A DNA stretch of 64,000 nucleotides, from assembly GCA_002372275.1 (NCBI GenBank), contig DFFP01000009.1, positions 5,833-69,832 on the forward strand. Direction: 5' to 3'. This document shows, one piece after another, positions 7,459-24,050 of this stretch (the stretch's first letter is position 1; each line of letters begins with the position of its first letter). The notes under the pieces are model-generated. The model made no database searches and had not been told where the DNA came from. It saw nothing but the letters and a program-made list of their open reading frames with translations. The position numbers and the translations under genes are program-made. The stretch is from Alphaproteobacteria bacterium UBA3773 (GTDB taxonomy: Bacteria > Pseudomonadota > Alphaproteobacteria > RF32 > CAG-239).

Positions 7459-7488
7459 AACGCAACGAATTATGTTGCGTTTTTTTTG
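7459..7488 (+). terminator. Rho-independent terminator after the early genes
   Basis: Stem aacgcaac/gttgcgtt, then a T7 run. Confidence 0.6.
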
Positions 7489-7632
7489 ATGTTTAATTGG
7501 GTTGCGGCAGAAATGTCTGTTTAACGGGTTTGGGTGGGAAAACGAGAAAATCGGGCTTGAATGTGAGGATATGAATTTGGAAAGAAAAAATGTTGTTCAA
7601 ATAACAATTTTTTAAAAAATGAAAGGAAAATA

Positions 7633-8358: not shown

Positions 8359-10117
8359 AATTTGGATTGAAAAAATACGTCGATCGGAAAAAAAATATGC
8401 TGATTATTTTGATAAAATTAAAACGATACGTCGCTATTATAAAAATGAAAATTCAAGAAATAAACAAAATATTTTTTGGGCAACGATTGAAACCTTAAAA
8501 CCGTTCTTGTATTTTAAGGAACCGAAAGTATTTATCAAGCAAAAAGAAAAATCAGGGCCGCTTGCGCTTTCGGTCGCTTGTCGAATTTTAGAAAAAGCTT
8601 TGGCTTGGAATATGGAACAAATCGATTTTGACAGCGTGATGAAATATGTCAGAAACGACTTTTTGCTTTTTGGATTTGGGGCCGCTTTTGAAAGGTATGT
8701 GCCGACATTTAAGACGTGTCACGTCAATGAAAACGGACATGATGTTTCACTACAACTCTTAAAAGATGAAAAAATTGAAACGGTTTATATCCCTCCGGAA
8801 GATTTTTTGGCCGATACGGAAAAAGTCAATGTGTGGGAAGATTGCGGGTGGATTGCACGTAAAATCGTTATGAGTTTGTCTGAAATTCGCGCCCAATTCG
8901 GTGAAGAAATTTTTCAAAAAATTGTGCAAAAAAACGGTGCCGACAAAATGGACTCCATGACGGTTTATGAAATATGGGATAAGAAAAGTAAGCGTATTTT
9001 ATATTTGGCTTTGGAATTTGCGTTTGAATTTTTGAAAATCAAAGAAGATGCGTTCGGACTTGAAGGATTTTGGGCCTTTCCGAAACCGTTGTTTGGGACG
9101 CTCGCAAATGACGGGATTATTCCGACACCTGATTTTGACCAATTAAAGCCTCTGCTTGATGAACTCTCCGGTGTGACGGGACGTATGCAACTTTTGATGC
9201 AAGCCATGAAGGTCACAGGGGCATATGACAGCAGTTTTCCGGAACTTGCAAATATCTTAAATAAAGATGTGACATTGGTTGCATTGTCGGATTTTGAGCG
9301 TTTAAAAGAAAACGGCGGTATTAAAGGAGTTGTGGATTTCGCCCCGATTGAACAATATGTGTCGGCGTTAACTGTTTTGGCATCAAGACGCGAGGATATC
9401 ATGACACAAATTTATGATATGACCGGGGTCAGCGATATTATGAGAGGAATGTCGGATAAAACGGAAACGGCAACCGCAGTTGAGAAAAAAACGAACTTCG
9501 GGACACTTCGCAATCAGGACAGACAAAATGATATGGTGCGCTTGATGACAAACCTCTTTCAGATGAAAGCTGAAATGATTTGCAGTTGTTTTGATGCAGA
9601 GCACTTGAAAATGTTTGCAGATTCTGAAACGCCTGATGATGTTGTTCAAACAGCTATTCTAATCTTAAAAGAACAAAAATTACGCGGAATGATTTTGGGA
9701 GTGGAAACAGATACGGCATTTGCGCAAAGTCATATCTTAGAGCAAACGCAAAAAAGTATTTTAGCTGTGCATGGCTTGATTAAAGAGGCATTTGAAATGG
9801 TTTCGATTCAACCTTCGCTGTTGGGGCTGTATCGACAGATGATTTCGACACTTGTTTCGACGATGCCTTGCGCCAGACAATATGAGCCCGTGATGGAGAA
9901 AGTATTTGAACAAATTGATGAAGCTCTTCGTTTGCCGAGTCCGCCTACGCAAGATATTTTGGCCTTGCAGCTCAATCAGCAAAAACAAAAAATGTGGCTC
10001 GACTATGATATTAAAACTAAAGAACTCGCTTTGAAAAAAGAAGAGGTTGAAATCAAAAAAACGGAAGCACTTCATAAGGTTTGTGCCAAAGAACATACCT
10101 TAAAAACAAAGAAGTGA
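8345..10117 (+). CDS. Putative portal (head-tail connector) protein
   Basis: Size (about 590 aa), a position in the head module, and a coiled-coil-like C-terminal tail. This is an architectural assignment only. Start placed at the ATG at 8345. Confidence 0.45.
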   Translation: MTEVEIWIEKIRRSEKKYADYFDKIKTIRRYYKNENSRNKQNIFWATIETLKPFLYFKEPKVFIKQKEKSGPLALSVACRILEKALAWNMEQIDFDSVMKYVRNDFLLFGFGAAFERYVPTFKTCHVNENGHDVSLQLLKDEKIETVYIPPEDFLADTEKVNVWEDCGWIARKIVMSLSEIRAQFGEEIFQKIVQKNGADKMDSMTVYEIWDKKSKRILYLALEFAFEFLKIKEDAFGLEGFWAFPKPLFGTLANDGIIPTPDFDQLKPLLDELSGVTGRMQLLMQAMKVTGAYDSSFPELANILNKDVTLVALSDFERLKENGGIKGVVDFAPIEQYVSALTVLASRREDIMTQIYDMTGVSDIMRGMSDKTETATAVEKKTNFGTLRNQDRQNDMVRLMTNLFQMKAEMICSCFDAEHLKMFADSETPDDVVQTAILILKEQKLRGMILGVETDTAFAQSHILEQTQKSILAVHGLIKEAFEMVSIQPSLLGLYRQMISTLVSTMPCARQYEPVMEKVFEQIDEALRLPSPPTQDILALQLNQQKQKMWLDYDIKTKELALKKEEVEIKKTEALHKVCAKEHTLKTKK

Positions 10118-10140
10118 TGTATGTTTGCAAAGGAATAAAA

Positions 10141-11700
10141 ATGATTAAAAAAAATGTCAACAGGTCTGTGAAATCTTTAGACTTTATTTTGCCGGCGCCT
10201 GTTGGAGGACTCAATAAAAAAGATCCGCTCTCGGATATGCCCCAAAATGATGCCGTGGTGATGGAAAACTATATTCCGATGAACAGTGTGGTCCAATTAA
10301 GGCCCGGATATGAAAAATATGTGTCGCTCGGAGATTTTGTAAATGGCAAAAAAGTGGAAACTCTTTGTTCGTGTCATATGGAAAATAAAAGTAAGATGAT
10401 AGCTGTTTATGACGGATATGCTTATGATGTATCAACAGCCTCAGCGCGCCGATTTGAAAATGTTCAATTTAGCCGTAGCTTATGTCAAACGGTTTGTTAT
10501 CGGGGGCATCTTTATTTTATGAATGGTGCGGATACGCCAAAAGTTTATTATATTGATGACCAGCAAGCAGAACATTTTGAGGATTGGGGATTTGTGGGAG
10601 AGGGGCTTCCTTCGCACAATATTGTTAGTGCCGGCGTCAGTCATGAATTTTTGTGGTTTATTGAACAAAATTCAACGCACGCTTGGGTTTCGGAAGTTGC
10701 CGGAAATATCGCAGGGACACTCAAACTGTTTGATGTTGCGCAAATCTTAAAATGGGGCGGACATTTGATGGCAGTTTTTAACTGGACAATCGACGGCGGG
10801 GAAGGTTTGGATGATTATACCTGTTTAATCAGTAGCGAAGGTGAACTGCTTATCTATCAGGGATATAACCCAAATGATGCAAATCATTTTACATTGATGG
10901 GGTCTTATAAATTTTCAAAGCCGATCGGATATCAATGTGTTCTTCCTTTGAAGGGTGATGTCATTATCATTTCAGAAGACGGTTATTTGCCGCTTTCGCA
11001 AGTCTTAAGCGCCAATAATACGCCCGGAACATTGGCCGCGTTTTCGGATAAAATAAATAATCTTGTGATGGAACGTGCGGCGCTTTATAAAAAAAATGAC
11101 GGGTGGCAAGGAATCATCTACCCAAAAAAAGGGTATGGCATATTTAATGTGCCCGTCAGTAACACATTTGAGCAACATGTAGTTAATCTGCAAACAGGGG
11201 CATGGTGCGTTTTTAAGAATATTCGCTCATTTTGTTGGTGTCTTTATGATGAAAATTTGTTTTTCGGAACGGACTGCGGTATTTGTCGCTTTGATAAGGG
11301 GTATTCGGATAACGGTTTGGCAATTGAAGGACGCATTGAGCAAGCTTATACGAATTTGGGCACAAATGCTTTAAAAAAAATCACACTGATCAAACCACGA
11401 GTGAAGGCAACAGGTAATTTTTTATTGGTCATCGGGACGGATATGGATTTTGAAGACAGAAAAATTTCCGATTCCGTTCAAATGGAATTTGAAAATAAAA
11501 AATTTGCAGTTTGGAATCAGGCGGTTTGGAATGCGGATTTTTGGCAGTCGTCAGGTAAGGGAAAAATACAGGGAAAATGGATTGCAAATTCGGCAACCGG
11601 ATTTAAGGCAAGTGTTGTGTTTGAAACAAAAACAAATGCCAATGATATTCAATGGTATGAAACAGCTCTTCGGATGGAAACGGGAACGGGAATTTTGTAG
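10141..11700 (+). CDS. Phage structural protein, function unknown (about 520 aa)
   Basis: Large ORF between the portal-like gene and the GroES-like gene. No recognisable motif. It could be a tail-tube or nozzle-type protein. Confidence 0.4.
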   Translation: MIKKNVNRSVKSLDFILPAPVGGLNKKDPLSDMPQNDAVVMENYIPMNSVVQLRPGYEKYVSLGDFVNGKKVETLCSCHMENKSKMIAVYDGYAYDVSTASARRFENVQFSRSLCQTVCYRGHLYFMNGADTPKVYYIDDQQAEHFEDWGFVGEGLPSHNIVSAGVSHEFLWFIEQNSTHAWVSEVAGNIAGTLKLFDVAQILKWGGHLMAVFNWTIDGGEGLDDYTCLISSEGELLIYQGYNPNDANHFTLMGSYKFSKPIGYQCVLPLKGDVIIISEDGYLPLSQVLSANNTPGTLAAFSDKINNLVMERAALYKKNDGWQGIIYPKKGYGIFNVPVSNTFEQHVVNLQTGAWCVFKNIRSFCWCLYDENLFFGTDCGICRFDKGYSDNGLAIEGRIEQAYTNLGTNALKKITLIKPRVKATGNFLLVIGTDMDFEDRKISDSVQMEFENKKFAVWNQAVWNADFWQSSGKGKIQGKWIANSATGFKASVVFETKTNANDIQWYETALRMETGTGIL

Positions 11701-11708
11701 GAGGAACG

Positions 11709-11951
11709 ATGAAAGCAATAACAGACAGAGTGTTAATTATGCTTGATGAACAAAATGATGGAAATCTTTTAATTCCTGAAACGATTGAGCGGCCTCAAAC
11801 AACAGGAATTGTGATTTCGGTCGGAAATAAAGTGAAAGATATTCAAAAAGGTGATCATGTCGTTTTTCACGCTTTTGATGAAGTACCTTGTTTGGAAAAT
11901 AGAGTGGTTGCCGTGAGGGATAAATCTATTTTGGCCATATTGGAAGAATGA
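11709..11951 (+). CDS. Phage-encoded GroES-like co-chaperonin (Cpn10 family)
   Basis: The 80-aa protein aligns along its whole length with GroES. ITDRVLIMLDE matches LHDRVIVKRKE, TTGIVISVGNK matches the region around EVLAVGNG, and IQKGDHVVFHAF...ILAILEE matches VKVGDIVIFNDG...DILAIVE. Confidence 0.7.
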   Translation: MKAITDRVLIMLDEQNDGNLLIPETIERPQTTGIVISVGNKVKDIQKGDHVVFHAFDEVPCLENRVVAVRDKSILAILEE

Positions 11952-12184
11952 TGGAAAAAACATTGAAAGAAATATTGGAAAAAATGATGAGGAAAAAAAC
12001 AGTTCGAGAAAGAATTTGTGCTATGCTCATCGGAGAGGCTCAAAACGGGAATTTTAAGGCCTTGGACGCTATTAGAGATATTATAGGCGATAAAGATAAA
12101 TCGCATCGCGATGAGCCTGAGCCGGTGACAAATATCAAAATCGAGGTGATCGATGGGACGCATTATCAAAATCAAGATTGCTAA
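11948..12184 (+). CDS. Small phage protein, possibly the small terminase subunit
   Basis: 78-aa ORF immediately upstream of and overlapping TerL. The assignment rests on position only. Confidence 0.3.
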   Translation: MMEKTLKEILEKMMRKKTVRERICAMLIGEAQNGNFKALDAIRDIIGDKDKSHRDEPEPVTNIKIEVIDGTHYQNQDC

Positions 12185-13472
12185 GCCTTTTTTGCCGCTG
12201 ATCAGCACAAACAAAAGAATTAAATTGTATTGGGGCGGGCGCGGCGGCGGAAAGAGCTATGCATTTGCCGATGCACTTTTGCTTAAAGGGTTGGAGAAAA
12301 AACTTTTAATTGCATGCGTGCGTGAAATTCAAGACACAATTAAAGATTCCGTTCATCGCTTACTTTCAGACCGAATTGAATTTTATGACTTAAAAGAATA
12401 TGAAGTCAAAGAAAGCGAAATTGTAAATACCTTAAACGGGACACGCTTTATTTTTAAGGGTCTGCGCAATCAGGATGCACATAAAATTAAATCGCTTGAA
12501 GGCGTGGATATTGTTTGGATTGAGGAAGCCCAGACCATTACAAAAAAATCGTGGGAGATTTTGTCGCCGACCATTCGAAAAGACGGGTCGGAAATTTGGA
12601 TTTCGATGAACAGAGAAGAAGAAAATGATCCGCTTTGGGTGCTTTTAGGCAGCCATCAAGATGAGCGTACGCTCATTGAAAAAGTCAACTTTTATGATAA
12701 CCCTTTTTGTCCTGAAGAACTGAAACTGCAAGCCAAAGAATGTCTGGCTCATGATGAAAGCACCTATCGGCATATTTGGCTCGGAGAGCCGCTTTCTCAA
12801 GGGGCACACAAGTTGATTGATGCCGGACTTGTGAAACATGCAATGCAACCGAAAATTTCGGAAAGTACCTCGCCACTTATCATCGGGCTTGATGTGGCGC
12901 GTTTCGGAGATGACCAAACTGTTTTTTGCTTGCGCAAAGGGCGAAAATGTTTGTCTTTTTTATCTTTTGAAAAAAAAGATAATGTCGAAGTGGCAAATAT
13001 TGCGACAAATTTGATTGAAACAAAACGTCCCTTACGTATTTTTTTGGATGCAGGCGGTGTGGGCGGCGGTGTGTTTGATATCTTAAAAGACAGAGGTTTT
13101 AAGGATATCATAAGAGGTGTTAATTTCGGCTCTAAAGCGATTAATGAAGAGCGTTATGCCAACAGAAGAGCCGAAATGTGGGATCATCTGCGGCAATGGC
13201 TGACAGAAGAAGTCGAGTTGCCAAATAATGGTATGCTCTATGATGAATTGTGTACCGTGCGCAAAAAATATGATGCGCTTGGAAGACTCTTACTCGAAGA
13301 AAAAGAAGAAATAAAAAAAAGAATAGGGCGTTCGACCGATTGGGCAGATGCCCTCGCGTTGACTTTTGCAGAGCCTGTTTATGATAAAGGACACACCAGA
13401 TTTTATGGTAACGGGCAGGTTTGTTTGGAAGAAATGTTTCAGGCTTCAAATCAGCGTATGCCGGTGTGGTGA
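12153..13472 (+). CDS. Terminase large subunit
   Basis: Walker A YWGGRGGGKSYAFA, Walker B DIVWIEEAQ, and a C-terminal nuclease-like domain. Length 439 aa. Confidence 0.85.
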   Translation: MGRIIKIKIAKPFLPLISTNKRIKLYWGGRGGGKSYAFADALLLKGLEKKLLIACVREIQDTIKDSVHRLLSDRIEFYDLKEYEVKESEIVNTLNGTRFIFKGLRNQDAHKIKSLEGVDIVWIEEAQTITKKSWEILSPTIRKDGSEIWISMNREEENDPLWVLLGSHQDERTLIEKVNFYDNPFCPEELKLQAKECLAHDESTYRHIWLGEPLSQGAHKLIDAGLVKHAMQPKISESTSPLIIGLDVARFGDDQTVFCLRKGRKCLSFLSFEKKDNVEVANIATNLIETKRPLRIFLDAGGVGGGVFDILKDRGFKDIIRGVNFGSKAINEERYANRRAEMWDHLRQWLTEEVELPNNGMLYDELCTVRKKYDALGRLLLEEKEEIKKRIGRSTDWADALALTFAEPVYDKGHTRFYGNGQVCLEEMFQASNQRMPVW

Positions 13473-13486
13473 TAAGGAATAATCAA

Positions 13487-13696
13487 ATGTTTGAAGAGAT
13501 TTTGTTGCCGGGTGGGGCTGTGGCCTCGTCGGCACAAGAGCTGGATGCTTACCTTAAAGAAAATCAGGTGGCACTTTCAGCAGATTACAGCTTAGCATAT
13601 TTGAAAAATGTGCGGCAGAAAATTAAAGCCGATCAAAGAAGAGAGGCTTTTGAAGATTTCGTTAACGAATATAAAAAAAGGATTTGGAATGAGTGA
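13487..13696 (+). CDS. Small phage protein, hypothetical
   Basis: ORF between TerL and the scaffold gene. Confidence 0.35.
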   Translation: MFEEILLPGGAVASSAQELDAYLKENQVALSADYSLAYLKNVRQKIKADQRREAFEDFVNEYKKRIWNE

Positions 13697-14552
13697 TAAT
13701 CTCAGGGAAGAATTAAAAGAAAATTTTGCTTCGGCTGATTTGCAAAGCAAAGAAAATGTGGCAGATAATACAGAGGAAGGAATTTCGCAAGATCAAAGTC
13801 TGGCGGAAAATTCGATTCCCGCGCCTCAAAGTTATCCGAAAGAATTTCAGGAACTTTTTAAGACGCTTTCGCCAAAATGGCAGGGATATTTGCTTGAGCG
13901 CGAAAAACAAGTCGAAAAAGGTTTTTCTGAACTTGGAAATAAAGTAAGCAGCTATAAATGGTCAGACCAAATTTTTGAAGACAGAAAGGAAAGATTAAAG
14001 GCACTCGGATATAACGGCGCAAAAGATTATATCCAAAAATTGATTTCAATTGATGATGCCTTGTATCAAAATCCGGCAGAAACTTTGAAAAAAATAAATG
14101 ACATTTACAGCTCACAAACAGTCAATAACAATGTTTCTATGACAGATGAGCAAAGAAAAATTTGGGAAAATATTGCGCTTGCTTCAAAAATGTTTGAACA
14201 AAAACAAAATGAGGCCGCAATGTTTGATTTGAAGCGATTTCAAGATGCTGTGACAGAGGACGGAAAATTAAAACATCCTTTTTATAAAGAGCTTGGCTCT
14301 GAAATGATCGGTGTTTTGAAAAGCGGGGCAGCCGGCAATTTGGAAGAAGCTTATCAAAAAGCTTTGTGGCTCAATCCTGCTACGCGTGAAAAAATGATTG
14401 AAGAGAAAATAGGAAATGTTTTGGAAGAAAAATTTTTGGCTGCTCAAAAAGCAACCGAAGCCTCTTTTTCGCCTTCATCAAAAACAGAACAAAAAGTTCA
14501 AGAACTTTCTTTGCGCGAAGAATTGGAAGCAGCTTTTAGAAAGGAAATTTAA
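13689..14552 (+). CDS. Putative scaffolding protein
   Basis: Acidic, Gln/Glu/Lys-rich, predicted helical protein located immediately upstream of the capsid gene. Confidence 0.5.
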   Translation: MSDNLREELKENFASADLQSKENVADNTEEGISQDQSLAENSIPAPQSYPKEFQELFKTLSPKWQGYLLEREKQVEKGFSELGNKVSSYKWSDQIFEDRKERLKALGYNGAKDYIQKLISIDDALYQNPAETLKKINDIYSSQTVNNNVSMTDEQRKIWENIALASKMFEQKQNEAAMFDLKRFQDAVTEDGKLKHPFYKELGSEMIGVLKSGAAGNLEEAYQKALWLNPATREKMIEEKIGNVLEEKFLAAQKATEASFSPSSKTEQKVQELSLREELEAAFRKEI

Positions 14553-14555
14553 TTT

Positions 14556-15539
14556 ATGACAGTCAATACAAATTATGATGCGATTTTTACAACAACAATT
14601 GAAAATCGCTCAAAAAAACTGGCCGATAATGTAACAAAAAATAATGCCTTGTTGCAAAGATTATCGGCAAAAGATAAAATCAGAACCGTAGACGGCGGCT
14701 CGAAAATTTTGGAAGAATTGGAGTATGGCAACGGTGATCTTGTATGGTATTCGGGATTTGATACAATTTCGTACAGCGGTCCGGAGCTCTTCTCGGCAGC
14801 CGAATATGCTTTGAAACTTTGTGCTGTTCCGGTAGCCGTTTCGGGTGAAGAAATGCTTAAAAACGCCGGCACTGAACGGATGATCGATTTGTTTGAAAAA
14901 CGTATTCAAAATGCCGAAAAAACAATGGCAAATAAAATTTCGGAAGCTCTTTATTCTGACGGCACAGGCAGCTCCGGTAAGGAAATCGGCGGTTTAAAAC
15001 TTTTGGTGGCGGATTCTCCTTCAACAGGAACAGTCGGTGGGATTAACCGTGCAACCACCGGAAACGAATTTTGGCGCAATCAATCAAGCGTTATTTCTTC
15101 TGCTGCCGGCGCACTTTCATCATCAACCATCTTAAAAAAAATGAATGATGTGTATTTGGCTTGTTCAAGAGGAACAGATAAGCCCGATTTGATTGTGACG
15201 GACGATTATTTATATGATATGTTTGAAAGTGCTTTGCAACCATCACAACGCTTTTGTGACCCGAAACTTGCCGACGCCGGATTTCAATGCTTGAAATATA
15301 AAGGCGCTGATGTGATTTTTGACGGTGGACAGGGCGGAAGTTGTCCTTCAAAGCATATGTATTTCTTAAATACGAATTATCTCTATTTAAGACCGCACAA
15401 AGATCGTAACTTTAAGGTTATCGGTGGCGAAAGACTTTCGATTAACTCTGATGCCATTTACAAAATCATCGGCTGGGCAGGAAATTTAACTATGTCTAAT
15501 GCTGCGCTTCAAGGTGTTCTCGTCGATTACATCGCTTAA
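14556..15539 (+). CDS. Major capsid protein
   Basis: 327 aa. Position after the scaffold gene, with a composition typical of HK97-fold coat proteins. Followed by a strongly structured repeat. Confidence 0.65.
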   Translation: MTVNTNYDAIFTTTIENRSKKLADNVTKNNALLQRLSAKDKIRTVDGGSKILEELEYGNGDLVWYSGFDTISYSGPELFSAAEYALKLCAVPVAVSGEEMLKNAGTERMIDLFEKRIQNAEKTMANKISEALYSDGTGSSGKEIGGLKLLVADSPSTGTVGGINRATTGNEFWRNQSSVISSAAGALSSSTILKKMNDVYLACSRGTDKPDLIVTDDYLYDMFESALQPSQRFCDPKLADAGFQCLKYKGADVIFDGGQGGSCPSKHMYFLNTNYLYLRPHKDRNFKVIGGERLSINSDAIYKIIGWAGNLTMSNAALQGVLVDYIA

Positions 15540-15540
15540 A

Positions 15541-15842
15541 AAACGCGTCTAGCTGGTATCTAATACAAAAAAGTCTGTTTGCGTTCGGTCGTGTACGAAT
15601 AAGTACACTCGTCTCACTCAAGCAGACTTTTCTTATTATATACGCACGCCATCCGTGTTTTTTTGCATTTATAGTGGAAGTTCTATTCTGCGCACCCTTA
15701 AAAAATGTTCGCTCTTTTGGTGAAAACGCGTCTAGCCGGTATCTAATACAAAAAAGTCTGTTTGCGTTCGGTTGTGTACGAATAAGTACACTCGTCTCAC
15801 TCAAGCAGACTTTTCTTATTATATACGCACGCCATCCGTGTT
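15541..15842. repeat. Two near-identical 119-bp tandem direct repeats (period 183 bp), each forming a long nested hairpin
   Basis: 15541..15659 and 15724..15842 differ at about 2 positions. Each copy has a 13-bp stem aaaagtctgtttg/caagcagactttt enclosing a gtgtac...gtacac hairpin. Confidence 0.9.
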
Positions 15843-15873
15843 ATGACGCTTTTTAGAAAAGGAGTATTCATCA

Positions 15874-16896
15874 ATGGCAAGAATGGATGAACAAACATAT
15901 AAAATCATACGTGGTATGAAAACAATTCAAAGACAGCACCCTCAAAAAGGGGAGAGTAAGTGGTATTATTTGGATCCGCGGGGTGCAACAAGAATAGCCG
16001 ATATGGGGGTGATAGACGTTGAAAGTGAGTATGCGCCTAACCCTTATGCAAGAGAAATTTTAATAGATGATATGAAACGCCATGAAGAAGATTATTATAT
16101 TTGGCGGACAAAAGGTGATGAAAAAGTAAGGGCCAGTCATGAAGAGCGTGAAGGAAAAGTTTATAATAGAAATTTGCCGCCTGATGGGGGTAATCCGGGA
16201 GAAGAACATAACTGCAGGTGTTGGGAAGAGGAATTTAAGTTTGAGAAGATGAAAAATGTTGATATGATTGATCTATTGGAAGAAATTGGTGCAGAATTAT
16301 CAGATGATGAGTTATATGACCGAATGTGGGAGAATATTAAAAGATTTGAAGATATTAAAACGTATCCATACCTTGACACAAAAGGATTAATTACAATTGG
16401 TGCCGGTGCAAATGTAAACAATTTGGATGTTTTTTTGAGTTTAAATTTGACAGTCAACGGATTTTCGGCAACAAGAGAACAAAAGTTAGAAGCATATAAA
16501 CAGTTGAAATGGTTGAGTGAACAAAAAGATGAGAAAGGAATGTATCTATATTATAATAGAAGAGCAAAATTTTTTGAAAAAGAAACAAATGTCCGTTTAC
16601 CTGATGTAGAAATACGGCAATTAGCACAAAGGCATATGACAAGTGATTTAAAACATTTGCGGCAAGAATTTGAAAGTTTTGACGAATTTCCTTTACCGTT
16701 AAAAGAAATATTACTGGATATTCAATATAATGTCGCAGGTGGATTGAGTGAAAAAAAATGGCCGAAGTTATACAGAGCTATACGTCAAAAAGATATGTTA
16801 GGCAAAGAAGGAATTGCAGAAAATGTGAATAGGCCGGATGTCGGAAAAAGTCGTAATGATTGGGCAAAAGGAATGGCGCGTTCAATCAGATTCTAA
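15874..16896 (+). CDS. MuF-motif minor head protein fused to a GH24 phage-lysozyme domain
   Basis: N-terminal region carries DEKVRASHEEREGKVY...PGEEHNCRCW, the C-terminal signature of the Phage_Mu_F/gp7 domain. The C-terminal region carries FEDIKTYPYLDTKGLITIGAGA, matching the T4-lysozyme E...D...TIGxG motif. Confidence 0.6.
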   Translation: MARMDEQTYKIIRGMKTIQRQHPQKGESKWYYLDPRGATRIADMGVIDVESEYAPNPYAREILIDDMKRHEEDYYIWRTKGDEKVRASHEEREGKVYNRNLPPDGGNPGEEHNCRCWEEEFKFEKMKNVDMIDLLEEIGAELSDDELYDRMWENIKRFEDIKTYPYLDTKGLITIGAGANVNNLDVFLSLNLTVNGFSATREQKLEAYKQLKWLSEQKDEKGMYLYYNRRAKFFEKETNVRLPDVEIRQLAQRHMTSDLKHLRQEFESFDEFPLPLKEILLDIQYNVAGGLSEKKWPKLYRAIRQKDMLGKEGIAENVNRPDVGKSRNDWAKGMARSIRF

Positions 16897-17319
16897 TTTA
16901 TCGGGAGGTGTGACGCAATATATATCATTTGCAAACTCCTGTTCTTGTGTGTAGTCTTCCCATATATCAAAGTCATTTTCTGCTATTCTTAAACAATCTT
17001 GCGTAATCCGTTCTGTTATTTTAAAAACAAAATATTGTTTAGGACCTTTTTTATCGGGATTATGCCAATACAAATCACATAAAAGAGTGATACGATTTTG
17101 GGTGTTTTCAATAAGTTGACAGTCTCCGGTCATAGCTACCAGATTGTCATCTAAAGGAGTTCGGCTATCAATAGATGTGGGGGTAATGTATGTTAAAGTA
17201 GAGCTTCTGCCTAAAGGCTTCAGAGGCTGATTAAAAATAGGATTAACAAACTGCTCCTTAGCGTTTGCGGTCAAAATAAAAAGAAAAACAAAAATGAAAA
17301 GAAAGAACATTTTTTTCAT
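16882..17319 (-). CDS. Secreted moron protein (signal peptide, Cys-containing), paralog A
   Basis: MKKMFFLFIFVFLFILTANA signal peptide. Shares the C.LIEN...LLC motif and a conserved upstream sequence with 17720..18139. Confidence 0.6.
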   Translation of the reverse strand: MKKMFFLFIFVFLFILTANAKEQFVNPIFNQPLKPLGRSSTLTYITPTSIDSRTPLDDNLVAMTGDCQLIENTQNRITLLCDLYWHNPDKKGPKQYFVFKITERITQDCLRIAENDFDIWEDYTQEQEFANDIYCVTPPDKLESD

Positions 17320-17354
17320 TCATTATACCTCGCTTTAAAGATTCTATATAGGGT

Positions 17355-17726
17355 TTGTTAAAATATGATAAAGGAAATTATGTAAATCATAATAAACGAG
17401 CGACAGCTTTTATTAATGATAGCCCTTTGCGAATTTCAAAAGAGTATATGATTGAACGGATGATGAATCATTTAAGAGAAGATTTAAAACGGGCAAAATC
17501 TAAAAGGAAAGATTTTGATACATACCCAACTCCATTAAAACTTATTATATTAGATTTTTATTATAATAAAGGTAGTTTTTATAATCAACCAGGATTACCT
17601 CAAGCATTAGATGAACGAAATGCGATATTATTTCAAGAAAAAATGGTAAGACATATGAGAGATAGAGATGAATGGACGCAACGACAATTTAACCGTATAA
17701 ATCAAAATTTTTGGAAAATTTATTGA
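17355..17726 (+). pseudogene. Lysozyme C-terminal fragment, a remnant of a module duplication
   Basis: The ORF uses a TTG start inside the repeated promoter sequence. Its product aligns only with the C-terminal half of the lysozyme domain of 15874..16896 (PLKxIxLDxxYN) and lacks the catalytic N-terminus. Confidence 0.5.
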
Positions 17727-18139
17727 TAAGGAGGAATAGTTATTAAACCATCATTTGTGAGGATTTCCTCAAAAATTATGTTTCCAAGATTATCGTAAAT
17801 TTTATGATTAATAATGTATTGTTCCGGTGTCGTTTGGTCTTTTGTTAAAGAAAAAGAGTGATTTGTATTTGTGTGAGATGTACATTCAAGGTTAAGGCAC
17901 TCATTACAAAGCATTTTTATATAAGATTCTTGATTTTCAATAAGAGAACAAGGAATATTTAAGGTAATATTGTTTCGCGAATTTTCATAATATTTCGAAC
18001 TTGGTGTTAAAACATAAAATGCTTCTTTGTCAGAAGTTACTAATTTTTGATAGAAAACAGGATGTAAAAAAAACGTTTTAGTTTGAGCATAAGCATTGAT
18101 GCTCACAATAAAAATGAAAAGAAAGAAAAATTTTTTCAT
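17720..18139 (-). CDS. Secreted moron protein, paralog B
   Basis: MKKFFFLFIFIVSINAYA signal peptide. The same 45-bp upstream element (agattctatatagggtttgttaaaatatgataaag) occurs at 17322..17380. Confidence 0.6.
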   Translation of the reverse strand: MKKFFFLFIFIVSINAYAQTKTFFLHPVFYQKLVTSDKEAFYVLTPSSKYYENSRNNITLNIPCSLIENQESYIKMLCNECLNLECTSHTNTNHSFSLTKDQTTPEQYIINHKIYDNLGNIIFEEILTNDGLITIPPYQ

Positions 18140-18204
18140 CTATGACACCTCGCCTTAGAGATTCTATATAGGGTTTGTTAAAATATGATAAAGAGGGGAT
18201 GAAT

Positions 18205-18453
18205 TGTATGAGCTGTTTTTTTGATTTTGATTGACAATTTTTGTAAATTGTGCCATCCTTAAAATAAGGCAGGGTGGTATCTGCCCCGAGGATTAGAACC
18301 CTCTCACTCGTTGCTAATGAAAGCGTAAAATTTCCTTCCGGTTAAGGCTGGAAGGAGGCTAATAATCGATTATTGAAAATATGCCCGCTATTTCGAGTGA
18401 ATAGGTTCTAACTTCCAGTCGCCTTACCAAGGCGAATTTTTTTATGGAGGCAT
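18205..18453 (+). promoter_or_regulatory. Structured 5' leader with an intrinsic terminator just upstream of the RBS (attenuator- or riboswitch-like)
   Basis: TTGACA at about 18229. Long-range helix ggattagaacc...tcactcg/cgagtga...ggttctaa. Hairpin ccttccggttaaggctggaagg. Terminator cgccttaccaaggcg plus a T8 run ending at 18445. The gene's ATG is at 18454. The antiterminator candidate ggctggaag/cttccagtc overlaps the terminator. Confidence 0.5.
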
Positions 18454-19176
18454 ATGATGAAAAAAATATTTATTATCGGGATATTCAGCTTTATGATTAA
18501 TTTTTCTGCACATGCAGAAATTATAATAGGTTCGGATTGCAATAATAAATGTACTTGGTTTTATGATACGCAAACGCAAGATTTAAGAATTGCTCCAAAT
18601 GCAGGCGCATCAGGGGATTTAGTTGTTGGAAATGGTGGTTCATCTTTTGGAGGTATCACAATCAACAATGTGACAATTGAAGAAGGAATTACAGGTTTTA
18701 ATGCTAACAGATTTAACACGGGGATGGGAACAGGATATACAGGAAAAGGAACATTAAAACTGCCGGAAAGTTTGAAGATGACAACAGCATCCGGAAATAT
18801 AGATTTGGCTTTTCAAGCTCTTGATTTGACGGCGACAAATTTGCAAAGCGTCGATTCACTGTCTATACGGCGTTTGCAAAATGTTATCTTAACACCTAAA
18901 GAAGGTTTTGTATTTCCGAGTAATTTTTTGGGAAGATGGAGAAACAGTAAATATACCGGTGCTTATATTGAAGGGGATATCACTATTCAGTGCCGCGGGG
19001 AAATGGCGCTTTGTGAGCAAATGATGGCTAAAGTGAAAGAATACGAAAATAGTCTCGGGGTTGATTTTTTTGTTCGTTATTTTGATAATAGAAAACGCCG
19101 AATTTATACGATTGACGAGGCTGTTGAGGCTCTGGGTAAGAATAATAAAAATACGTTTAGGTTAAAGTATCGGTAA
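18454..19176 (+). CDS. Secreted protein, paralog of 30952..31809 (conserved KRRIYxIDEA...KNxxTFxLKYR C-terminus)
   Basis: Signal peptide MMKKIFIIGIFSFMINFSAHA. Shares a GS[DE]C...CT[WY].YD N-terminal motif and the C-terminal about 25 aa with the ORF at 30952..31809. Confidence 0.7.
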   Translation: MMKKIFIIGIFSFMINFSAHAEIIIGSDCNNKCTWFYDTQTQDLRIAPNAGASGDLVVGNGGSSFGGITINNVTIEEGITGFNANRFNTGMGTGYTGKGTLKLPESLKMTTASGNIDLAFQALDLTATNLQSVDSLSIRRLQNVILTPKEGFVFPSNFLGRWRNSKYTGAYIEGDITIQCRGEMALCEQMMAKVKEYENSLGVDFFVRYFDNRKRRIYTIDEAVEALGKNNKNTFRLKYR

Positions 19177-19400
19177 GGGAAAAAATAAGGAAAAATCGCC
19201 TTTGAAAGCGCAAAAGCGCGGGCGATTAAGCTCAGATCCCTTAATGACCTGACGCGCCGCGCAGGTCAAGGGATGACAGGGTAAGGTGAAGATGCCTGAC
19301 GCTTTGCTTTTGGCATTACCGGTATGACAGAAAAGAGGATGGCGGTTTCAATATTTTATGTGCACGCTGAAATTTTTTTTAGCGTGTTTTTTTAATACTA

Positions 19401-19961
19401 ATGAAAGGAAAGAAAATGAGCGTTGAATTTTCAATGTTTCAAAGTGCGGTCAGTTCGCAAAATACAAATAACGGTGTTTTTGCAAGGTTTTATGATCGGT
19501 ATGTTAAAACAGGCGAGATGTTAAAAAACGGATTGCCGGAATTTAAAACAAAACTTTATGTCGAAATCAAGGTTAAAGATCAATATGACGTTTTTGATCA
19601 GCCGGCAGAAGAAATACACATCAGGCGTTTTCCAAAAGCGTATGAAATGTATTTACATGAGAAAAAAGAATTACAAAGCGGTACGCCGCTTTTTTTGTTT
19701 GCTTTTTTGGATCAGGGACAAATTGAAACATGTCGGTTTCGGGGAATATATACCGTTGAAAAATTAGCTTCGTTGAATGATTTGGATGCAAAAAATTTGG
19801 GGCTTGAAAAAGAAAAAAAATTGGCACTGAAATTTTTGAAAGCCTCTCAAAATAATCTGGCTGTTTTAAAAGCACAAAATAAAGAAGAATACTACTTGGC
19901 GGAAATTCAAAAACTCAAAGATGAAATTTCGGAGCTGAAAAAAAATGCCGTCCAAATGTGA
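19401..19961 (+). CDS. Phage protein, hypothetical (C-terminal coiled coil)
   Basis: 186-aa ORF whose 3' end overlaps the GNAT gene. Confidence 0.45.
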   Translation: MKGKKMSVEFSMFQSAVSSQNTNNGVFARFYDRYVKTGEMLKNGLPEFKTKLYVEIKVKDQYDVFDQPAEEIHIRRFPKAYEMYLHEKKELQSGTPLFLFAFLDQGQIETCRFRGIYTVEKLASLNDLDAKNLGLEKEKKLALKFLKASQNNLAVLKAQNKEEYYLAEIQKLKDEISELKKNAVQM

Positions 19962-20385
19962 GATTATTTCGGATTTATCAGGCGAAGTGGTGCACTTTGT
20001 GTGTCGGGGATTAAATGAAAATGAAGATTGGGTGGGGCAAAATATTACGCTCGGCATCAAATTAAATCATGAGTTAATTGCAGGAATTATTATCAACGAT
20101 ATCAGAGCAGGTCTTGATTGTTGGCTCACCATTTTTTCGTGCGATAAGAGGTGGTGCAACAAAAGAGTGCTGAGGGCCGTTTTTGATGTGGTTTTTGATT
20201 TTTTAAAATGCAAGCGCGTCGGGGTTATGGTTGATGTTCAAAATGCCAAAAGCCGGACATTGGTCGAGAGGCTCGGATTTCAAAAAGAAGGAATTTTGCG
20301 CGCCTTCTTAAATAACGGACATGATGCGCTGATTTATTCAATGTTAAAAAAGGAATGTCAATGGAGGACAAAAGATAATGAGTAA
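19945..20385 (+). CDS. GNAT-family N-acetyltransferase
   Basis: LVERLGFQKEGILRAF is the acetyl-CoA-binding motif A of GNAT enzymes. Length 146 aa. Confidence 0.7.
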   Translation: MPSKCEIISDLSGEVVHFVCRGLNENEDWVGQNITLGIKLNHELIAGIIINDIRAGLDCWLTIFSCDKRWCNKRVLRAVFDVVFDFLKCKRVGVMVDVQNAKSRTLVERLGFQKEGILRAFLNNGHDALIYSMLKKECQWRTKDNE

Positions 20386-21058
20386 AAGTTTAAACGTTTT
20401 CAGTAAGGTAGGTAATGGTTTGAAAGTTGGCTATAACAGTCAACCGACAAACGATTTTTTGAATTACTTAAATAATTATAATACTTCAAATGTGGATCAT
20501 ACCTTAAACAATTTAACAAGCTGGGCATCAAGGGCCAGCGATAATTTGCAAAATATGGGCGGGTATACATTTCAGATTGACGGCTCGGAAGATTTGAAAA
20601 ATAATATCACAAATGCAATGTATCAAAATTATTTAAGTAAACTTTTGCCGCAATATGAAGCCGAGCAAAATGATTTGCAAACAAGGCTCTTAAATCAGGG
20701 ATTGGGGGTGAATACTGCCGCCTATCAAAATGCGATGAATAATTTGGTATCGGCTCAAAACGGGGCCTTAAATGATGCGATTTCAGAGGCAGTTAATGCC
20801 GGAAATACGGCATATAACAATGATATTCAAAATCAAATAGCTATTGGAAATTTTCAAAATAATGCGGCGCAAAATTATATCAATTTATTGCTTTCGGCGC
20901 TCGAAAATTCGCTCAGCTCTTATGATGTGGCACAAAATAAATATGAGGCCGGAAATAATTTATCGGCAGCGCAAAGCAAAGCGCAAAATCAATCGGTTCA
21001 AAATCAATTAAAGGCTATTAAGATTGCTGCGGATACGGCAAAATCTTTGTGGAGCTAA
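20378..21058 (+). CDS. Asn/Gln-rich phage tail-associated protein
   Basis: Low-complexity N/Q/A-rich 226-aa ORF immediately upstream of the tail-collar fibre gene. Confidence 0.4.
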   Translation: MSKSLNVFSKVGNGLKVGYNSQPTNDFLNYLNNYNTSNVDHTLNNLTSWASRASDNLQNMGGYTFQIDGSEDLKNNITNAMYQNYLSKLLPQYEAEQNDLQTRLLNQGLGVNTAAYQNAMNNLVSAQNGALNDAISEAVNAGNTAYNNDIQNQIAIGNFQNNAAQNYINLLLSALENSLSSYDVAQNKYEAGNNLSAAQSKAQNQSVQNQLKAIKIAADTAKSLWS

Positions 21059-21069
21059 AGGAGGATAAA

Positions 21070-21828
21070 ATGGCTTTTGACAGTGAGGGTAATTTTACAC
21101 GTTTGCATAATTGGGAAAATGATAGATTAAACGATATTGCAATTATTGCAGACAGACACGATGAAGAAGATAACGGCTTTGCACAAGGGTTAAATGAGTG
21201 TTTTTTAAGAGATGGTCGTGTGAGCCTTTCAGGTTCGCTTAAAATGGGAGATCATCAGATTAAAAATTTGGCACCGGCAACTGTTTCAACAGATGCCGTG
21301 AACAAGGCTCAGCTTGAAAATGCATCATCCAATGTGACTGAGGCTTTAACAATTTTGCTCAATAAACTTTTTAAGATCGGCGATATCAAAGCCTCAACAA
21401 GGGCAGCTAATCACGATCACTGGTTTTTGTGTAACGGGCAGGCCATCTCTCGAACAGCGTATTCACAATTGTTTGCACTTATCGGAACAAATTTTGGGGC
21501 AGGTGACGGGACAACAACATTTAATTTGCCGGATTATAGAGGAAAATTTTTGCGCGGCCTTGGCGGGGATTCTGAAGCTGATATTTATACAACCCAAGCC
21601 GAGGGACTACCTAATATTACGGGTTCAGCTTATGTTTATTCGAGAGTGAGCGGTGAGGGCGCTTTTGAAGGTAGCAATAATCAGGCTGGCGGTATTGATA
21701 ATAATGGTTCAGGTAATAAAACTCTTTCATTTGATGCCTCGCGTTCATCAGCGATTTACGGAGCATCAGAGCATGTGACGCCCATCAACCAGGCCGTCAA
21801 TTATTTTATAAAAGTTTTGGAGGAATAA
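21070..21828 (+). CDS. Tail fibre protein with a phage tail-collar domain
   Basis: TTFNLPDYRGKFLRGLG matches the tail-collar motif (FxLPDLRGRF). RBS aaggagg before the ATG at 21070. Confidence 0.75.
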   Translation: MAFDSEGNFTRLHNWENDRLNDIAIIADRHDEEDNGFAQGLNECFLRDGRVSLSGSLKMGDHQIKNLAPATVSTDAVNKAQLENASSNVTEALTILLNKLFKIGDIKASTRAANHDHWFLCNGQAISRTAYSQLFALIGTNFGAGDGTTTFNLPDYRGKFLRGLGGDSEADIYTTQAEGLPNITGSAYVYSRVSGEGAFEGSNNQAGGIDNNGSGNKTLSFDASRSSAIYGASEHVTPINQAVNYFIKVLEE

Positions 21829-21829
21829 T

Positions 21830-22189
21830 ATGACAGGTGTGATTAGAGAAAATGGCAATTTAATTGAAGTCAGGCAAGGGGACAGTTTTGAAATCGACAT
21901 TTGTATCTGTAAAGAAAATGAAAATGTAGATTTAACAGGCGCGACCATAAAAATGCAATGTCGTCAAAAAAGTGATGATGCACTTGTATGGAGCTTAACC
22001 GGCACAGCAGTTGATGTTTTGCATGGGAAAATTTCGCTGATTTTAACACCTGAAAATACTTCGATTGATGTTGGGGATTATAAAACGGATATTGAGGTTC
22101 GATTTTCAGATGGGACAGTTCATACGATTTTTCCGCAGGATGTAAATAAAATCGGAACACTTCGGATAACTGAGCAGGTGACAAAATGA
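21830..22189 (+). CDS. Phage tail-associated protein, hypothetical
   Basis: 119-aa ORF within the tail-fibre cluster. Confidence 0.4.
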   Translation: MTGVIRENGNLIEVRQGDSFEIDICICKENENVDLTGATIKMQCRQKSDDALVWSLTGTAVDVLHGKISLILTPENTSIDVGDYKTDIEVRFSDGTVHTIFPQDVNKIGTLRITEQVTK

Positions 22190-23046
22190 GAATAAAAGAT
22201 GAGAGTGCTCAATTAAATGCGGATCTATCATCAAAAAGTGAGATTATGGTTGATATTAAACCTCAACAAGCTTTTGAGATTGTGTGGCGTGAAGGTGCAC
22301 AAATAGATGTTAAAACCGCATTAAAATATATTAAGTCCGGTGAAAAAGAAATTGATGAATATGTTCAAACATCACTTGAAAGCGCCTTAGAAGCTAAGCA
22401 AGATGTAATCGAAGATTTAGAAAATATCAGATCGGGGGCAAATTTAGGAATAACTTCAGTTCAACCTTCTGATTTGATACTTGCGCTTGAGCAAAAACAA
22501 GACACACTTGTTTCAGGAACGAGTATTAAGACAATCAACAATCAATCTTTATTGGGAAGTGGTAATATTGATATTCAAGAAAGTGGAGCGGTTGACAGCG
22601 TCAATGGTAAAACAGGAACTGTTGTTTTAAGTACAAATGACTTAACAAATGACAGCGGATATATTACAACTTCGGCATTGGCACCTTATGCTTTATCATC
22701 AAGTCTTGCAAGCGTTGCTTTAAGCGGCGATTATGATGATTTGATTAACAAACCCGGTTTTATGCCTGATTACAGCGCAGGAGTAAGTGTTTCTACATCT
22801 CAAGGAAATACATATACGGTTCCTGCAGATGGTGTTATTAAAGCGAAAATAAATTGGAGTGGCTCAACGGTTCTTGATATACGTGAAAATAATAGTAGTG
22901 GAGAACAACTGATTTATTGTTGGCAACAAAACAACAACGGTTCAACTTGTTATATACCTGTCTCAAAAGATATGGTTCTTTATTTTACCGAAAGAAATGG
23001 TGCAGATGTTCAGTTTTATCCATACAAAGGAGTTCAAAATGCTTAA
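22186..23046 (+). CDS. Tail fibre protein
   Basis: VNGKTGTVVLSTNDLTNDSGYIT fibre-repeat motif. Position next to the tail-collar fibre. Confidence 0.6.
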   Translation: MRIKDESAQLNADLSSKSEIMVDIKPQQAFEIVWREGAQIDVKTALKYIKSGEKEIDEYVQTSLESALEAKQDVIEDLENIRSGANLGITSVQPSDLILALEQKQDTLVSGTSIKTINNQSLLGSGNIDIQESGAVDSVNGKTGTVVLSTNDLTNDSGYITTSALAPYALSSSLASVALSGDYDDLINKPGFMPDYSAGVSVSTSQGNTYTVPADGVIKAKINWSGSTVLDIRENNSSGEQLIYCWQQNNNGSTCYIPVSKDMVLYFTERNGADVQFYPYKGVQNA

Positions 23047-23389
23047 ATACGCAAAAATATCAGAAGAACAAACAAAAAAATGTGATGTTGGTTTAGGTTC
23101 TAATATAGCTTTTTATAAATCTATCGGTATGACAGAGATGGATGTTGAACAAGCCTATAACGGGCAGTGGTATGTGAAAGGATATGCACCGTTAAAACCT
23201 GAGCCGACAGATGAAGAACAAAAACAAAAAAGAGCGGCAGCTTATCAAGCAGAAGTTGACCCGATAACGGCACATATTCAAAGGCTTCGTGATGAAGAGG
23301 GAGAGGAAGAAAAAATCAAAGAGCTTATTGAACAGCGCAAACAAAAAGTCGAGGAAATTAAAGAGCGCTACCCTTATAAAGGAGAATAA
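23039..23389 (+). CDS. Putative tail-fibre assembly or chaperone protein
   Basis: Small acidic ORF directly downstream of and overlapping the fibre gene. Confidence 0.35.
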   Translation: MLKYAKISEEQTKKCDVGLGSNIAFYKSIGMTEMDVEQAYNGQWYVKGYAPLKPEPTDEEQKQKRAAAYQAEVDPITAHIQRLRDEEGEEEKIKELIEQRKQKVEEIKERYPYKGE

Positions 23390-23392
23390 ATA

Positions 23393-23668
23393 ATGAACGA
23401 TATTAAGATACTTTGGTTTATTGTGATGGCGGCGATTGTTTCCGCCATTTTGCGTTTTAAAAACATAACTCAGCTCTGCTTTGACGGATTGCTCGGTTTT
23501 GTGATGGGCTATTCTTTTTATCTGCTCTTGGGTTATTGGATTGCAGATGGGGCAACAAGGGCCGGCTTTACGGGGGTGATTATTTTATGTTCACGCCCGT
23601 TATATGACGGGCTTAATCACATTCTTTCAAGCAGGCTTGAAGATTTATTGGAACGGTATTTAAGATAA
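23393..23668 (+). CDS. Putative holin
   Basis: 91 aa with 2 to 3 predicted transmembrane segments, immediately upstream of the spanin pair. Confidence 0.5.
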   Translation: MNDIKILWFIVMAAIVSAILRFKNITQLCFDGLLGFVMGYSFYLLLGYWIADGATRAGFTGVIILCSRPLYDGLNHILSSRLEDLLERYLR

Positions 23669-24049: not shown

Positions 24050-24050
24050 A

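Follow-up and report, generated by a model that had tools for sequence, protein, structure and literature searches.

We analyzed a 64,000-nt stretch of contig DFFP01000009.1 of Alphaproteobacteria bacterium UBA3773 (hereafter the window), with a focus on one gene whose 340-amino acid (aa) product joins a short phage-head module of the MuF/SPP1-gp7 type (mini-MuF) to a lysozyme-like domain. We refer to this protein as the MuF-lysozyme. Its gene lies in an ~18-kb podovirus-like prophage (window 5893-24050) that adjoins a tRNA-Gly, within an island of ~3.9 kb (15540-19400) that starts where the capsid gene ends. In order, the island contains two 131-nt repeats, the MuF-lysozyme gene, a convergent gene (imm1) that we consider the candidate cognate immunity gene, a 123-aa open reading frame (ORF) that is an orphan lysozyme fragment, an orphan paralogue of imm1 (imm2) and a gene for a secreted 240-aa protein. 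The coordinates are given in Table 1, and loci compared with the window carry labels of the form L001.

Table 1. Genes and sequence features of the prophage and its island, in window coordinates.
Feature	Positions	Strand	Remarks
S24 repressor	5893-6579	-	
Tail protein	between S24 repressor and portal		
Portal	8258-10117		
539-aa structural protein	10081-11700		
GroES-like co-chaperonin	11709-11951		between structural genes and terminase
Large terminase	12153-13472		
Scaffold	between large terminase and major capsid gene		
Major capsid protein	14556-15539		followed by the island
131-nt direct repeats, two copies	15540-15670, 15723-15853		95% identical; left edge of the island
MuF-lysozyme gene	15874-16896	+	340 aa; mini-MuF module, linker, muramidase domain; no signal peptide
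mini-MuF module	15874-16248	+	aa 1-125
Conserved MuF/SPP1-gp7 core	16075-16221	+	aa 68-116 of the MuF-lysozyme
Left recombination junction	16199-16269	+	~70 nt encoding GEEHNCRCWEEEFKFEKMKNVDM; placed by blastn breakpoints
T4-lysozyme/pesticin-like muramidase domain	16294-16893	+	aa 141-340; catalytic candidates E159, D168, T174
imm1, candidate cognate immunity gene	16882-17319	-	145 aa; tail-to-tail with the putative toxin gene, 15-nt overlap
87-nt repeat, copy 1	17287-17373		imm1 5' end (signal-peptide codons) and upstream region
Orphan lysozyme fragment	17355-17726	+	123 aa; TTG start uncertain
imm2, orphan immunity paralogue	17720-18139	-	139 aa; signal peptide cleaved between ...NAYA and QT; convergent with the fragment, 7-nt overlap
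87-nt repeat, copy 2	18107-18193		imm2 5' end; 90% identical to copy 1
Secreted protein	18454-19176	+	240 aa; last island gene; homologue at the same place in L055
GNAT acetyltransferase	19945-20385		among tail genes
Further virion and tail-fibre genes	3' of the island		followed by holin-like gene, Rz and Rz1
Lysis cassette without endolysin	23393-24049	+	91-aa holin-like protein with three transmembrane segments (23393-23668), Rz (23668-23895), lipoprotein Rz1 (23807-24049)

The MuF-lysozyme ORF begins with an ATG preceded by an AGGAG-like (Shine-Dalgarno-like) site 8-15 nt upstream. Three profile libraries pick up its MuF signature, D82.KVRASH89..EGKVY97....PP103..PG109..HNCRC116. Pfam Phage_Mu_F (PF04233) aligns aa 68-116 with profile positions 60-109 of 112 (E 1.4e-6) at 29.5 bits against a gathering score of 29.6, PHROG 324 'head morphogenesis' matches at E 8e-16, and TIGR01641 (SPP1 gp7) reaches 35.7 bits with a cutoff of 39.65. 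Homologues bearing the same mini-MuF clear the Pfam Phage_Mu_F threshold at 37-56 bits. The original prediction, made from the letters of the window, had read the gene as a MuF signature fused to a lysozyme domain and starting right after tandem repeats. The fusion in one ORF is real: alongside the signature in the profile libraries, the lysozyme fold appears in the structure model and the catalytic residues align by hhalign (see below), and the second 131-nt repeat ends 20 nt 5' of the start codon. A Phage_Mu_F match in the N-terminal region had been named as a check, and the match recovered covers the second half of the profile. The claim that the bulk of the MuF N-terminus is missing stands only in part. 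The region is indeed short, with the last half of the profile matched, but it is a conserved and confidently folded module of 125 aa rather than a broken MuF domain. That prediction had overlooked imm1, the truncated second lysozyme with imm2, the fact that the region is an AT-rich insert not shared by relatives, and the occurrence of the lysozyme/partner pair mostly without MuF and mostly apart from genes of this phage family.

The modular nature of the mini-MuF is seen both in models and in searches. An AlphaFold model of the MuF-lysozyme, built on 42 sequences with a predicted local distance difference test score (pLDDT) of 87.7, consists of two domains joined by a low-confidence linker (130-140), and aa 1-120 of the mini-MuF have pLDDT values of 74-92. 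Among the predicted viral structures of BFVD, MuF or minor capsid proteins match ~70 aa of the model and lysozymes ~200 aa; none of the listed matches spans both parts. When GenBank phages were searched by tblastn, matches were confined to aa 69-122 and fell in annotated minor head proteins. Similarly, in an exhaustive phmmer search with aa 1-135, ordinary MuF proteins matched aa ~68-125 only, and a smaller set of proteins bore the entire mini-MuF at the N-terminus. Profile and sequence searches together recovered the mini-MuF on dozens of proteins, with identities of about 40-96% among relatives, and at least 26 full-length homologues share the same MuF-lysozyme architecture at 43-75% identity. 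A scan of IMG/VR with the mini-MuF returned a single true relative, the L003/L004 prophage. The MuF-lysozyme gene sits within the structural block, after the capsid gene and away from the portal gene; in relatives it follows GroES or the large terminase gene (terL).

The first 65 residues form a separate conserved N-terminal segment that is also present on proteins without the MuF core. For instance, many proteins of 226-378 aa in L157-L175 (such as L175 2322-3203 and L168 9944-11080) share only aa ~4-62 of the mini-MuF, with the pattern ...G.RP..R...PGQSEWYYLDPRG...IDV..EN.PNP. Downstream of this segment they carry 'EIQNYLY.ND.Y.YK.LYG.TPPP', an Asn/Gln (N/Q)-rich linker and diverse C-termini, among them one SAA-like domain and one that is GH108-like in appearance. 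The first 60 residues may be a delivery tag by themselves. At the other end of the module, a sigma-70-like site (TTGAGA-16-TATGAT, with extended TG) lies at 16241-16268 inside the gene, just 5' of the ATG of M131 (16264). The same ATG is the called start of a 210-aa orphan lysozyme in L011, and an internal start at M131 might yield a free lysozyme domain.

By its modelled fold and aligned catalytic residues, the C-terminal part of ~200 aa is a lysozyme of the T4-lysozyme/pesticin-like type. Sequence similarity to known families is faint. No Pfam lysozyme family matched the window protein at E <= 1, and searches of PDB sequences with the protein and with a profile of the domain returned nothing significant for the lysozyme part. 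PF16754 Pesticin ('bacterial toxin homologue of phage lysozyme') does match homologues that are 50-60% identical to the window protein, and PF00959 matches one. The top Foldseek matches of the model in the PDB were pesticin (4exm, 4epf, 4arq) and T4 lysozyme, with probabilities of 0.96-1.0 and a TM-score of 0.62 normalised to T4 lysozyme; the E-value was only ~0.02 because the whole two-domain model served as the query. In an hhalign alignment, E159, D168 and T174 are in register with E11, D20 and T26 of T4 lysozyme. Among 12 aligned family members E159 and D168 are invariant and T174 nearly so.

The partner gene imm1 encodes a protein with a cleavable signal peptide (cleaved between ...LTANA and KE), an F-V-N-P-I-F-N-Q-P-L motif and four conserved cysteines. 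It is predicted to fold as an 8-stranded beta-barrel and had no match in Pfam, PADLOC or NCBIfam. imm2 is a paralogue of imm1, and both have a cleavable signal peptide. The 123-aa ORF between them is 33% identical to aa 103-209 of a free lysozyme of 217 aa, and Pfam gives it a weak match to the Pesticin C-terminal part (E 2e-4, below the gathering score). Because the alignment is limited to the C-terminal half of the free lysozyme, the fragment lacks the catalytic residues.

More than 90 proteins share the lysozyme domain (aa ~141-340; 53-68% identity), which follows N-termini that are unrelated (N/Q-rich, short, or MuF), and the boundary of homology is sharp, at aa 141-143 of the MuF-lysozyme. 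A scan of GTDB species with the lysozyme domain, one genome for each, returned 41 loci, all in uncultured proteobacterial metagenome-assembled genomes and nearly all labelled Alphaproteobacteria; where the titles of the records name a source, it is gut, faeces or rumen. A convergent gene of the imm1 family lies 3' of 43 of the 49 distinct lysozyme ORFs, and of 34 of the 37 full-length ones, irrespective of the type of N-terminus. The two genes usually overlap by exactly 15 nt. The partner often has a lipobox, and a signal peptide or lipobox was seen in the partners at the 11 full-length loci inspected by eye and in the majority of the tabulated N-termini. The identity matrices of lysozyme and partner are correlated (Spearman 0.57, Mantel p <= 5e-4). 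Most of these pairs lack both a MuF and, within 10 kb, any gene of the phage family. This frequent pairing away from MuF and from the phage family fits an effector/immunity pair and parallels pesticin and its immunity protein Pim. In L002, L176 and L177, MuF-lysozyme/partner pairs lie among housekeeping genes, with phage genes absent from the vicinity.

Some of the regions beside the lysozyme cassettes (L006 12033-12789; L058 6417-7628; L002 12572-14059; L176 193-1676) contain more toxin/immunity-like pairs and orphans. Among them are a VgrG3-C-like fragment with a secreted protein that bears the signal peptide of the neighbouring immunity gene, a recurrent pair of a cysteine-rich protein of ~175-209 aa and a secreted 'EIYHGI.IDAVY' protein, and a free GH108 with a convergent gene of 247 aa. 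We also considered the virion protein of ORF 20378 as the origin of the N/Q-rich N-termini seen in lysozymes without MuF, with which it has 'MSKSL' in common; this origin was rejected, as BLAST gave no significant similarity.

Comparison with sister loci shows that different cargos are exchanged behind the mini-MuF, in agreement with the proposal in the original prediction that MuF domains carry exchangeable C-terminal cargo, here a muralytic one. L011 is the same phage (its capsid protein is 96% identical) and carries its island in the corresponding position. The mini-MuF there, 96% identical to that of the window, is joined to a lysozyme that is only 26% identical, with its own convergent partner. 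Downstream, the window-type lysozyme (97%) is present as the 210-aa orphan together with imm1 (99%), followed by the same fragment and imm2. By blastn, window 15540-16269 corresponds to the full gene of L011, and window 16199-18203 to its orphan block. Because these breakpoints overlap, L011 has two copies of the final ~70 nt of the MuF module, one in the full gene and one before the orphan. Besides these two lysozyme variants, A and B, the mini-MuF carries several other muramidase families: Pfam recognises GH108 with PG_binding_3, T6SS_VgrG3-like_C and Phage_lysozyme (PF00959), and one weak SLT match (E 0.0026) falls below the gathering score. For about half of the cargos Pfam gives no match. 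There is no cytoplasmic toxin among the Pfam-recognised cargos; Colicin_E5 was found only on a more distant PG_binding_1 and MuF protein. In L058 a VgrG3-C-like cargo occupies the same site after the capsid gene, and in L141 a GH108 cargo lies between GroES and terL. Each has its own convergent secreted partner, of a different family in each case.

Across this phage family the cassette is found at three or more sites. In L003/L004 the intact cassette follows terL, and L003 has in addition a decayed copy at a fourth place (7774-8355), between GroES and a small-terminase-like gene, made of an imm1 homologue (78-80% identical to that of the window, truncated and called at 83 aa) and scraps of a MuF-lysozyme. 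In L001 the cassette is absent and the capsid gene abuts the next structural gene. Relative to L001 and L003, where the capsid gene is followed after 44-100 nt by a homologue of ORF 19401, the whole island is an insert. Its GC content is 0.32, compared with about 0.39-0.41 in the flanks. The 131-nt repeats at its left edge are kept at the same site in L011 and L058 and have no further copies in the window. We read the 87-nt repeat, which covers the 5' ends of both imm1 and imm2, as the right-hand homology that bounds each toxin/immunity module. No Rfam family matched the repeats or the island, and no PADLOC defence system matched any island gene. The secreted 240-aa protein had no match in Pfam, PHROGs, NCBIfam or PADLOC.

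Taken together, we consider it very probable that the locus is a toxin/immunity cassette of some kind. The fuller reading, in which it is a MuF-type polymorphic toxin/immunity system with a muramidase toxin, delivery by the capsid and exported immunity, is in our view probable, with somewhat less assurance. In this system the MuF-lysozyme would be made along with the virion genes, and its MuF module would load it into the capsid, as SPP1 gp7 is loaded via the portal. At ejection it would exit the capsid into the envelope of the attacked cell and cut the murein. In the periplasm of the lysogen, imm1, presumably a Sec-exported and disulfide-bonded beta-barrel, would neutralise the cognate muramidase. 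New lysozyme and immunity cassettes recombine into an interval bounded by two conserved stretches, the 3' end of the MuF module and the 5' end or promoter of the immunity gene, and an incoming cassette shifts the previous one downstream. The decapitated lysozyme fragment and the intact imm2 of the window are a relic of such a displacement. For loading, ejection, toxicity and inhibition we draw on analogy with SPP1 gp7, pesticin/Pim and the muramidase pairs of type VI secretion systems (T6SS).

MuF polymorphic toxins of temperate phages have been described before (Zhang et al. 2012, PMC3482391; Jamet et al. 2017, PMC5576092), and the locus has the features by which these authors recognise them: the domain architecture, exchanged cargos, an array of orphans and a location in a prophage. 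The small adjacent immunity gene specific to the toxin type is represented by the partner families, judged by sequence, in a convergent orientation. As in the known systems, an N-terminal MuF head domain precedes a variable C-terminal toxic domain, a small putative immunity ORF is adjacent, the setting is among the head genes of a prophage, and capsid delivery is the proposed route. There are also clear differences. The cargos stressed in both papers (PMC3482391 and PMC5576092) are nucleases, ADP-ribosyltransferases, RelA-like enzymes and peptidases; the window-type cargo is a putative muramidase that would act in the periplasm. Its predicted immunity protein is exported and encoded by a convergent gene that overlaps the 3' end of the toxin gene, the carrier is a mini-module of 125 aa, and orphans form an array. 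Known MuF toxins come mostly from Firmicutes, whereas the present host is a Gram-negative alphaproteobacterium of the gut. The words lysozyme, peptidoglycan, muramidase and pesticin are not used by Jamet et al. (PMC5576092), and the sole MuF fusion among the cell-wall-directed domains mentioned by Iyer et al. is a zeta-toxin-like kinase. Our literature searches, including searches for MuF together with virion-associated murein hydrolases, found no described case of a MuF-muramidase.

Other known systems resemble parts of the locus. Pesticin of Yersinia pestis is likewise a modular toxin with an exchangeable activity domain of the T4-lysozyme fold and has a specific immunity protein, Pim, which is periplasmic and does not inhibit T4 lysozyme (PMC3390615). 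In contrast to the MuF-lysozyme, pesticin enters via FyuA/TonB with receptor and translocation domains that have no counterpart here, and the sequence likeness is faint, the Pfam match being found in homologues of the window protein only. Family and structure searches with imm1, which included no direct comparison with Pim, detected no relation between the two. Among T6SS effectors, the TssI2-TsiI2 pair of Vibrio fluvialis is described as a pesticin-domain periplasmic toxin with a cognate immunity protein (PMC9620997). Such pairs also combine a delivery module and an exchangeable muramidase with an adjacent cognate periplasmic immunity protein, and a VgrG3-C-like domain of the T6SS type is carried by the same mini-MuF in sister loci. 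V. cholerae VgrG3-TsiV3 is a T6SS muramidase effector with periplasmic immunity. Unlike in these pairs, the vehicle proposed here is a phage capsid and not a T6SS spike, and no T6SS genes were found in the 14 Pfam-annotated loci (L002-L012, L058, L176, L177), the other loci having been screened with phage-family proteins only. Virion murein hydrolases and ejection proteins, such as the transglycosylase domain of T7 gp16, the T4 gp5 lysozyme and phi29 gp13, are also particle-borne muralytic domains used at the envelope of the infected cell, as we propose for the MuF-lysozyme. They are core structural proteins with no immunity partner, polymorphism or orphans, whereas the window gene is accessory and some copies have no phage-family genes within ~10 kb.

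MuF toxins, pesticin-like toxins and periplasmic immunity proteins are thus each already known. What appears to be new is the periplasm-acting cargo, the convergent exported immunity protein of an undescribed family, the mini-MuF carrier and the host clade. MuF toxins are widespread and their route to their targets is not settled. The window-type cargo would be able to act only in the periplasm, and its antidote is predicted to be exported; virion delivery, if true, would show that MuF cargo is exposed to the periplasm during ejection. In addition, imm1 is a candidate for a new family of lysozyme inhibitors, a secreted beta-barrel without a Pfam entry, and uncultured Alphaproteobacteria of gut and rumen show several muramidase families being exchanged on a single phage-head tag.

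Several points weigh against the capsid-delivered toxin. Muramidase activity, toxicity, inhibition by imm1 and presence in the virion are properties that we infer. The MuF match of the window protein falls just below the curated cut-offs of both Pfam and TIGR01641 and covers half of the Pfam profile, so binding to the portal may not be retained. The capsid has no need of a MuF protein, since relatives such as L001 are without one. The MuF-lysozyme pairs outside prophages would require a capsid supplied in trans. With regard to immunity, the Foldseek matches of the imm1 model were weak and confined to avidin/lipocalin-like barrels, none of them a lysozyme inhibitor or T6SS immunity protein already known. 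Linkage alone could account for the correlation of the lysozyme and partner matrices, and in described MuF toxins the small ORF follows the toxin gene, whereas the immunity genes here are convergent.

A different role is suggested by the lysis cassette of the element. As the original prediction had noted, its holin-like, Rz and Rz1 genes are not accompanied by an endolysin gene: comparison of the ORFs of the element with PHROGs, Pfam and NCBIfam gave no match to a lysin family other than PHROG 5107 'amidase', a negative limited to known families, and tblastn of both endolysin types of the relatives against the window gave no match. The PHROG 5107 ('lysis: amidase') match falls on the 539-aa ORF, also called 'amidase' in RefSeq, which we considered as a hidden endolysin and rejected. 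Its label is probably a propagated misannotation: Pfam detects no amidase domain in the protein, and the annotations given to homologues from Mx8, Sulfitobacter, Brucella and Rhizobium phages are structural, stabilization, head-closure or tubular-tail protein. Five relatives (L001, L003, L030, L032 and L040) have an endolysin, PF00959-type or SleB-like, which in the four with located spanin genes (L003, L030, L032 and L040) lies directly 5' of Rz/Rz1, exactly where the window has none. The cytoplasmic MuF-lysozyme, or the 210-aa product starting at M131, could pass the holin lesion and replace the absent endolysin; that prediction had suggested the fusion protein as the possible sole lysin of the element. 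It is the only muralytic enzyme recognised in the element and, like the muramidases of holin-endolysin-spanin cassettes, it has no signal peptide. Canonical holins release any folded cytoplasmic muramidase. The promoter-like site just 5' of M131 would suit such a product, cassettes without an endolysin recur on other public contigs (for instance L054, run SRR873606), and in L058, L059, L145 and L146 a MuF-muramidase gene lies directly 3' of Rz/Rz1. The locus raises the possibility that a phage having lost its endolysin borrows its toxin for lysis. However, unlike in canonical cassettes, the window gene is fused to a head module, has a secreted partner and lies 6.5 kb upstream of the holin gene. 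Relatives combine such genes with true endolysins: L003/L004 carry the MuF-lysozyme together with a canonical holin/endolysin pair, and in L030 an endolysin coexists with a lysozyme/partner cassette. Lysis would be opposed by a cognate inhibitor in the periplasm, the three loci named above have identical modules amid housekeeping genes, and polymorphism and orphan arrays typify conflict systems rather than lysis genes. We consider the role of sole endolysin unlikely.

Closer in mechanism to the capsid-delivered toxin is an entry lysin combined with exclusion, a reading that shares its core mechanism and differs in purpose. Here the virion murein hydrolase would aid a short-tailed phage in crossing the wall, the partner would disarm the lysin of related incoming phages, and diversification would reflect an arms race of phage versus phage. 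All recognised mini-MuF cargos are muralytic and belong to several families, the element is podovirus-like in its gene content, and intact orphan immunity genes beside dead toxins would widen the exclusion. Podoviruses eject internal proteins through the envelope, such as T7 gp16 with its transglycosylase domain. We nevertheless hold this reading to be less likely, though deserving of some weight, because the gene is dispensable in the family (L001) and found at variable sites, pairs occur without phage-family genes within 10 kb and mostly without MuF, and our literature search found no precedent for exclusion by inhibition of an ejected lysin. The likeness to pesticin invites yet another explanation, a soluble bacteriocin that is released on lysis of the prophage and kills neighbours from outside, with a MuF that is no packaging tag. 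The Pfam Pesticin matches of relatives, the pesticin fold of the model and the predicted pairing with a periplasmic immunity protein would agree with it, as would the N/Q-rich, disordered-looking N-termini of most family members. Such N-termini are reminiscent of colicin translocation domains. The MuF module is not known to bind receptors or to traverse the outer membrane, and it is highly conserved (about 50-75% identity) while its cargo varies, which argues for a function of its own; we regard a soluble bacteriocin as quite improbable. Finally, since only half of the MuF profile is matched and a truncated lysozyme fragment is adjacent, one may suspect a functionless remnant in which a truncated MuF was fused by accident to a lysozyme pseudogene. 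This is contradicted by conservation and hardly credible: the ORF is intact, with at least 26 full-length homologues, confident folds and invariant catalytic residues, and contigs of other public runs and assemblies share its arrangement.

An extension of the capsid-delivered toxin is that the mini-MuF, along with its first ~60 residues, is a capsid-loading tag that makes these ~18-kb elements injectors of exchangeable wall toxins, including chromosomal ones loaded in trans, with the exported immunity doubling as superinfection exclusion. We offer it as a speculation whose full form is rather doubtful. If the tag reading is true, the swaps of cassettes and the retained orphan immunity genes record an arms race of phage versus phage in the periplasm.

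The prophage itself carries the genes of a temperate phage (S24 repressor, portal, terminase, capsid, tail-fibre and spanin genes). Neither an integrase nor a recognisable replication gene was found in the ~18-kb element, and two small ORFs without matches are the sole content between the S24 repressor and the first virion gene. The element could be like a gene transfer agent or reliant on host functions. A megablast of the whole element against GenBank phages returned nothing. Relatives lie at differing chromosomal sites (at tRNA-Gly in the window, at a PRA-PH gene in L003). Lysis modules are highly mosaic across the family (window, L003, L030, L032, L040 and L001), with unrelated holins of 64-146 aa, an endolysin of either the PF00959 or the SleB-like type and varying genome positions of the cassette, and both the window and L058/L059 have Rz/Rz1 without an adjoining endolysin gene. 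Each 131-nt repeat contains nested hairpins; copy 1 ends in a terminator-like stem and a T-run (15644-15658), and copy 2 is without the T-run. Another terminator-like hairpin (18419-18435) precedes the gene for the secreted 240-aa protein. The GroES-like gene and the GNAT acetyltransferase gene are both kept across the phage family (L001, L003, L011). One relative of 17 kb, MT835830.1, is a deposited phage scaffold that came from human faeces.

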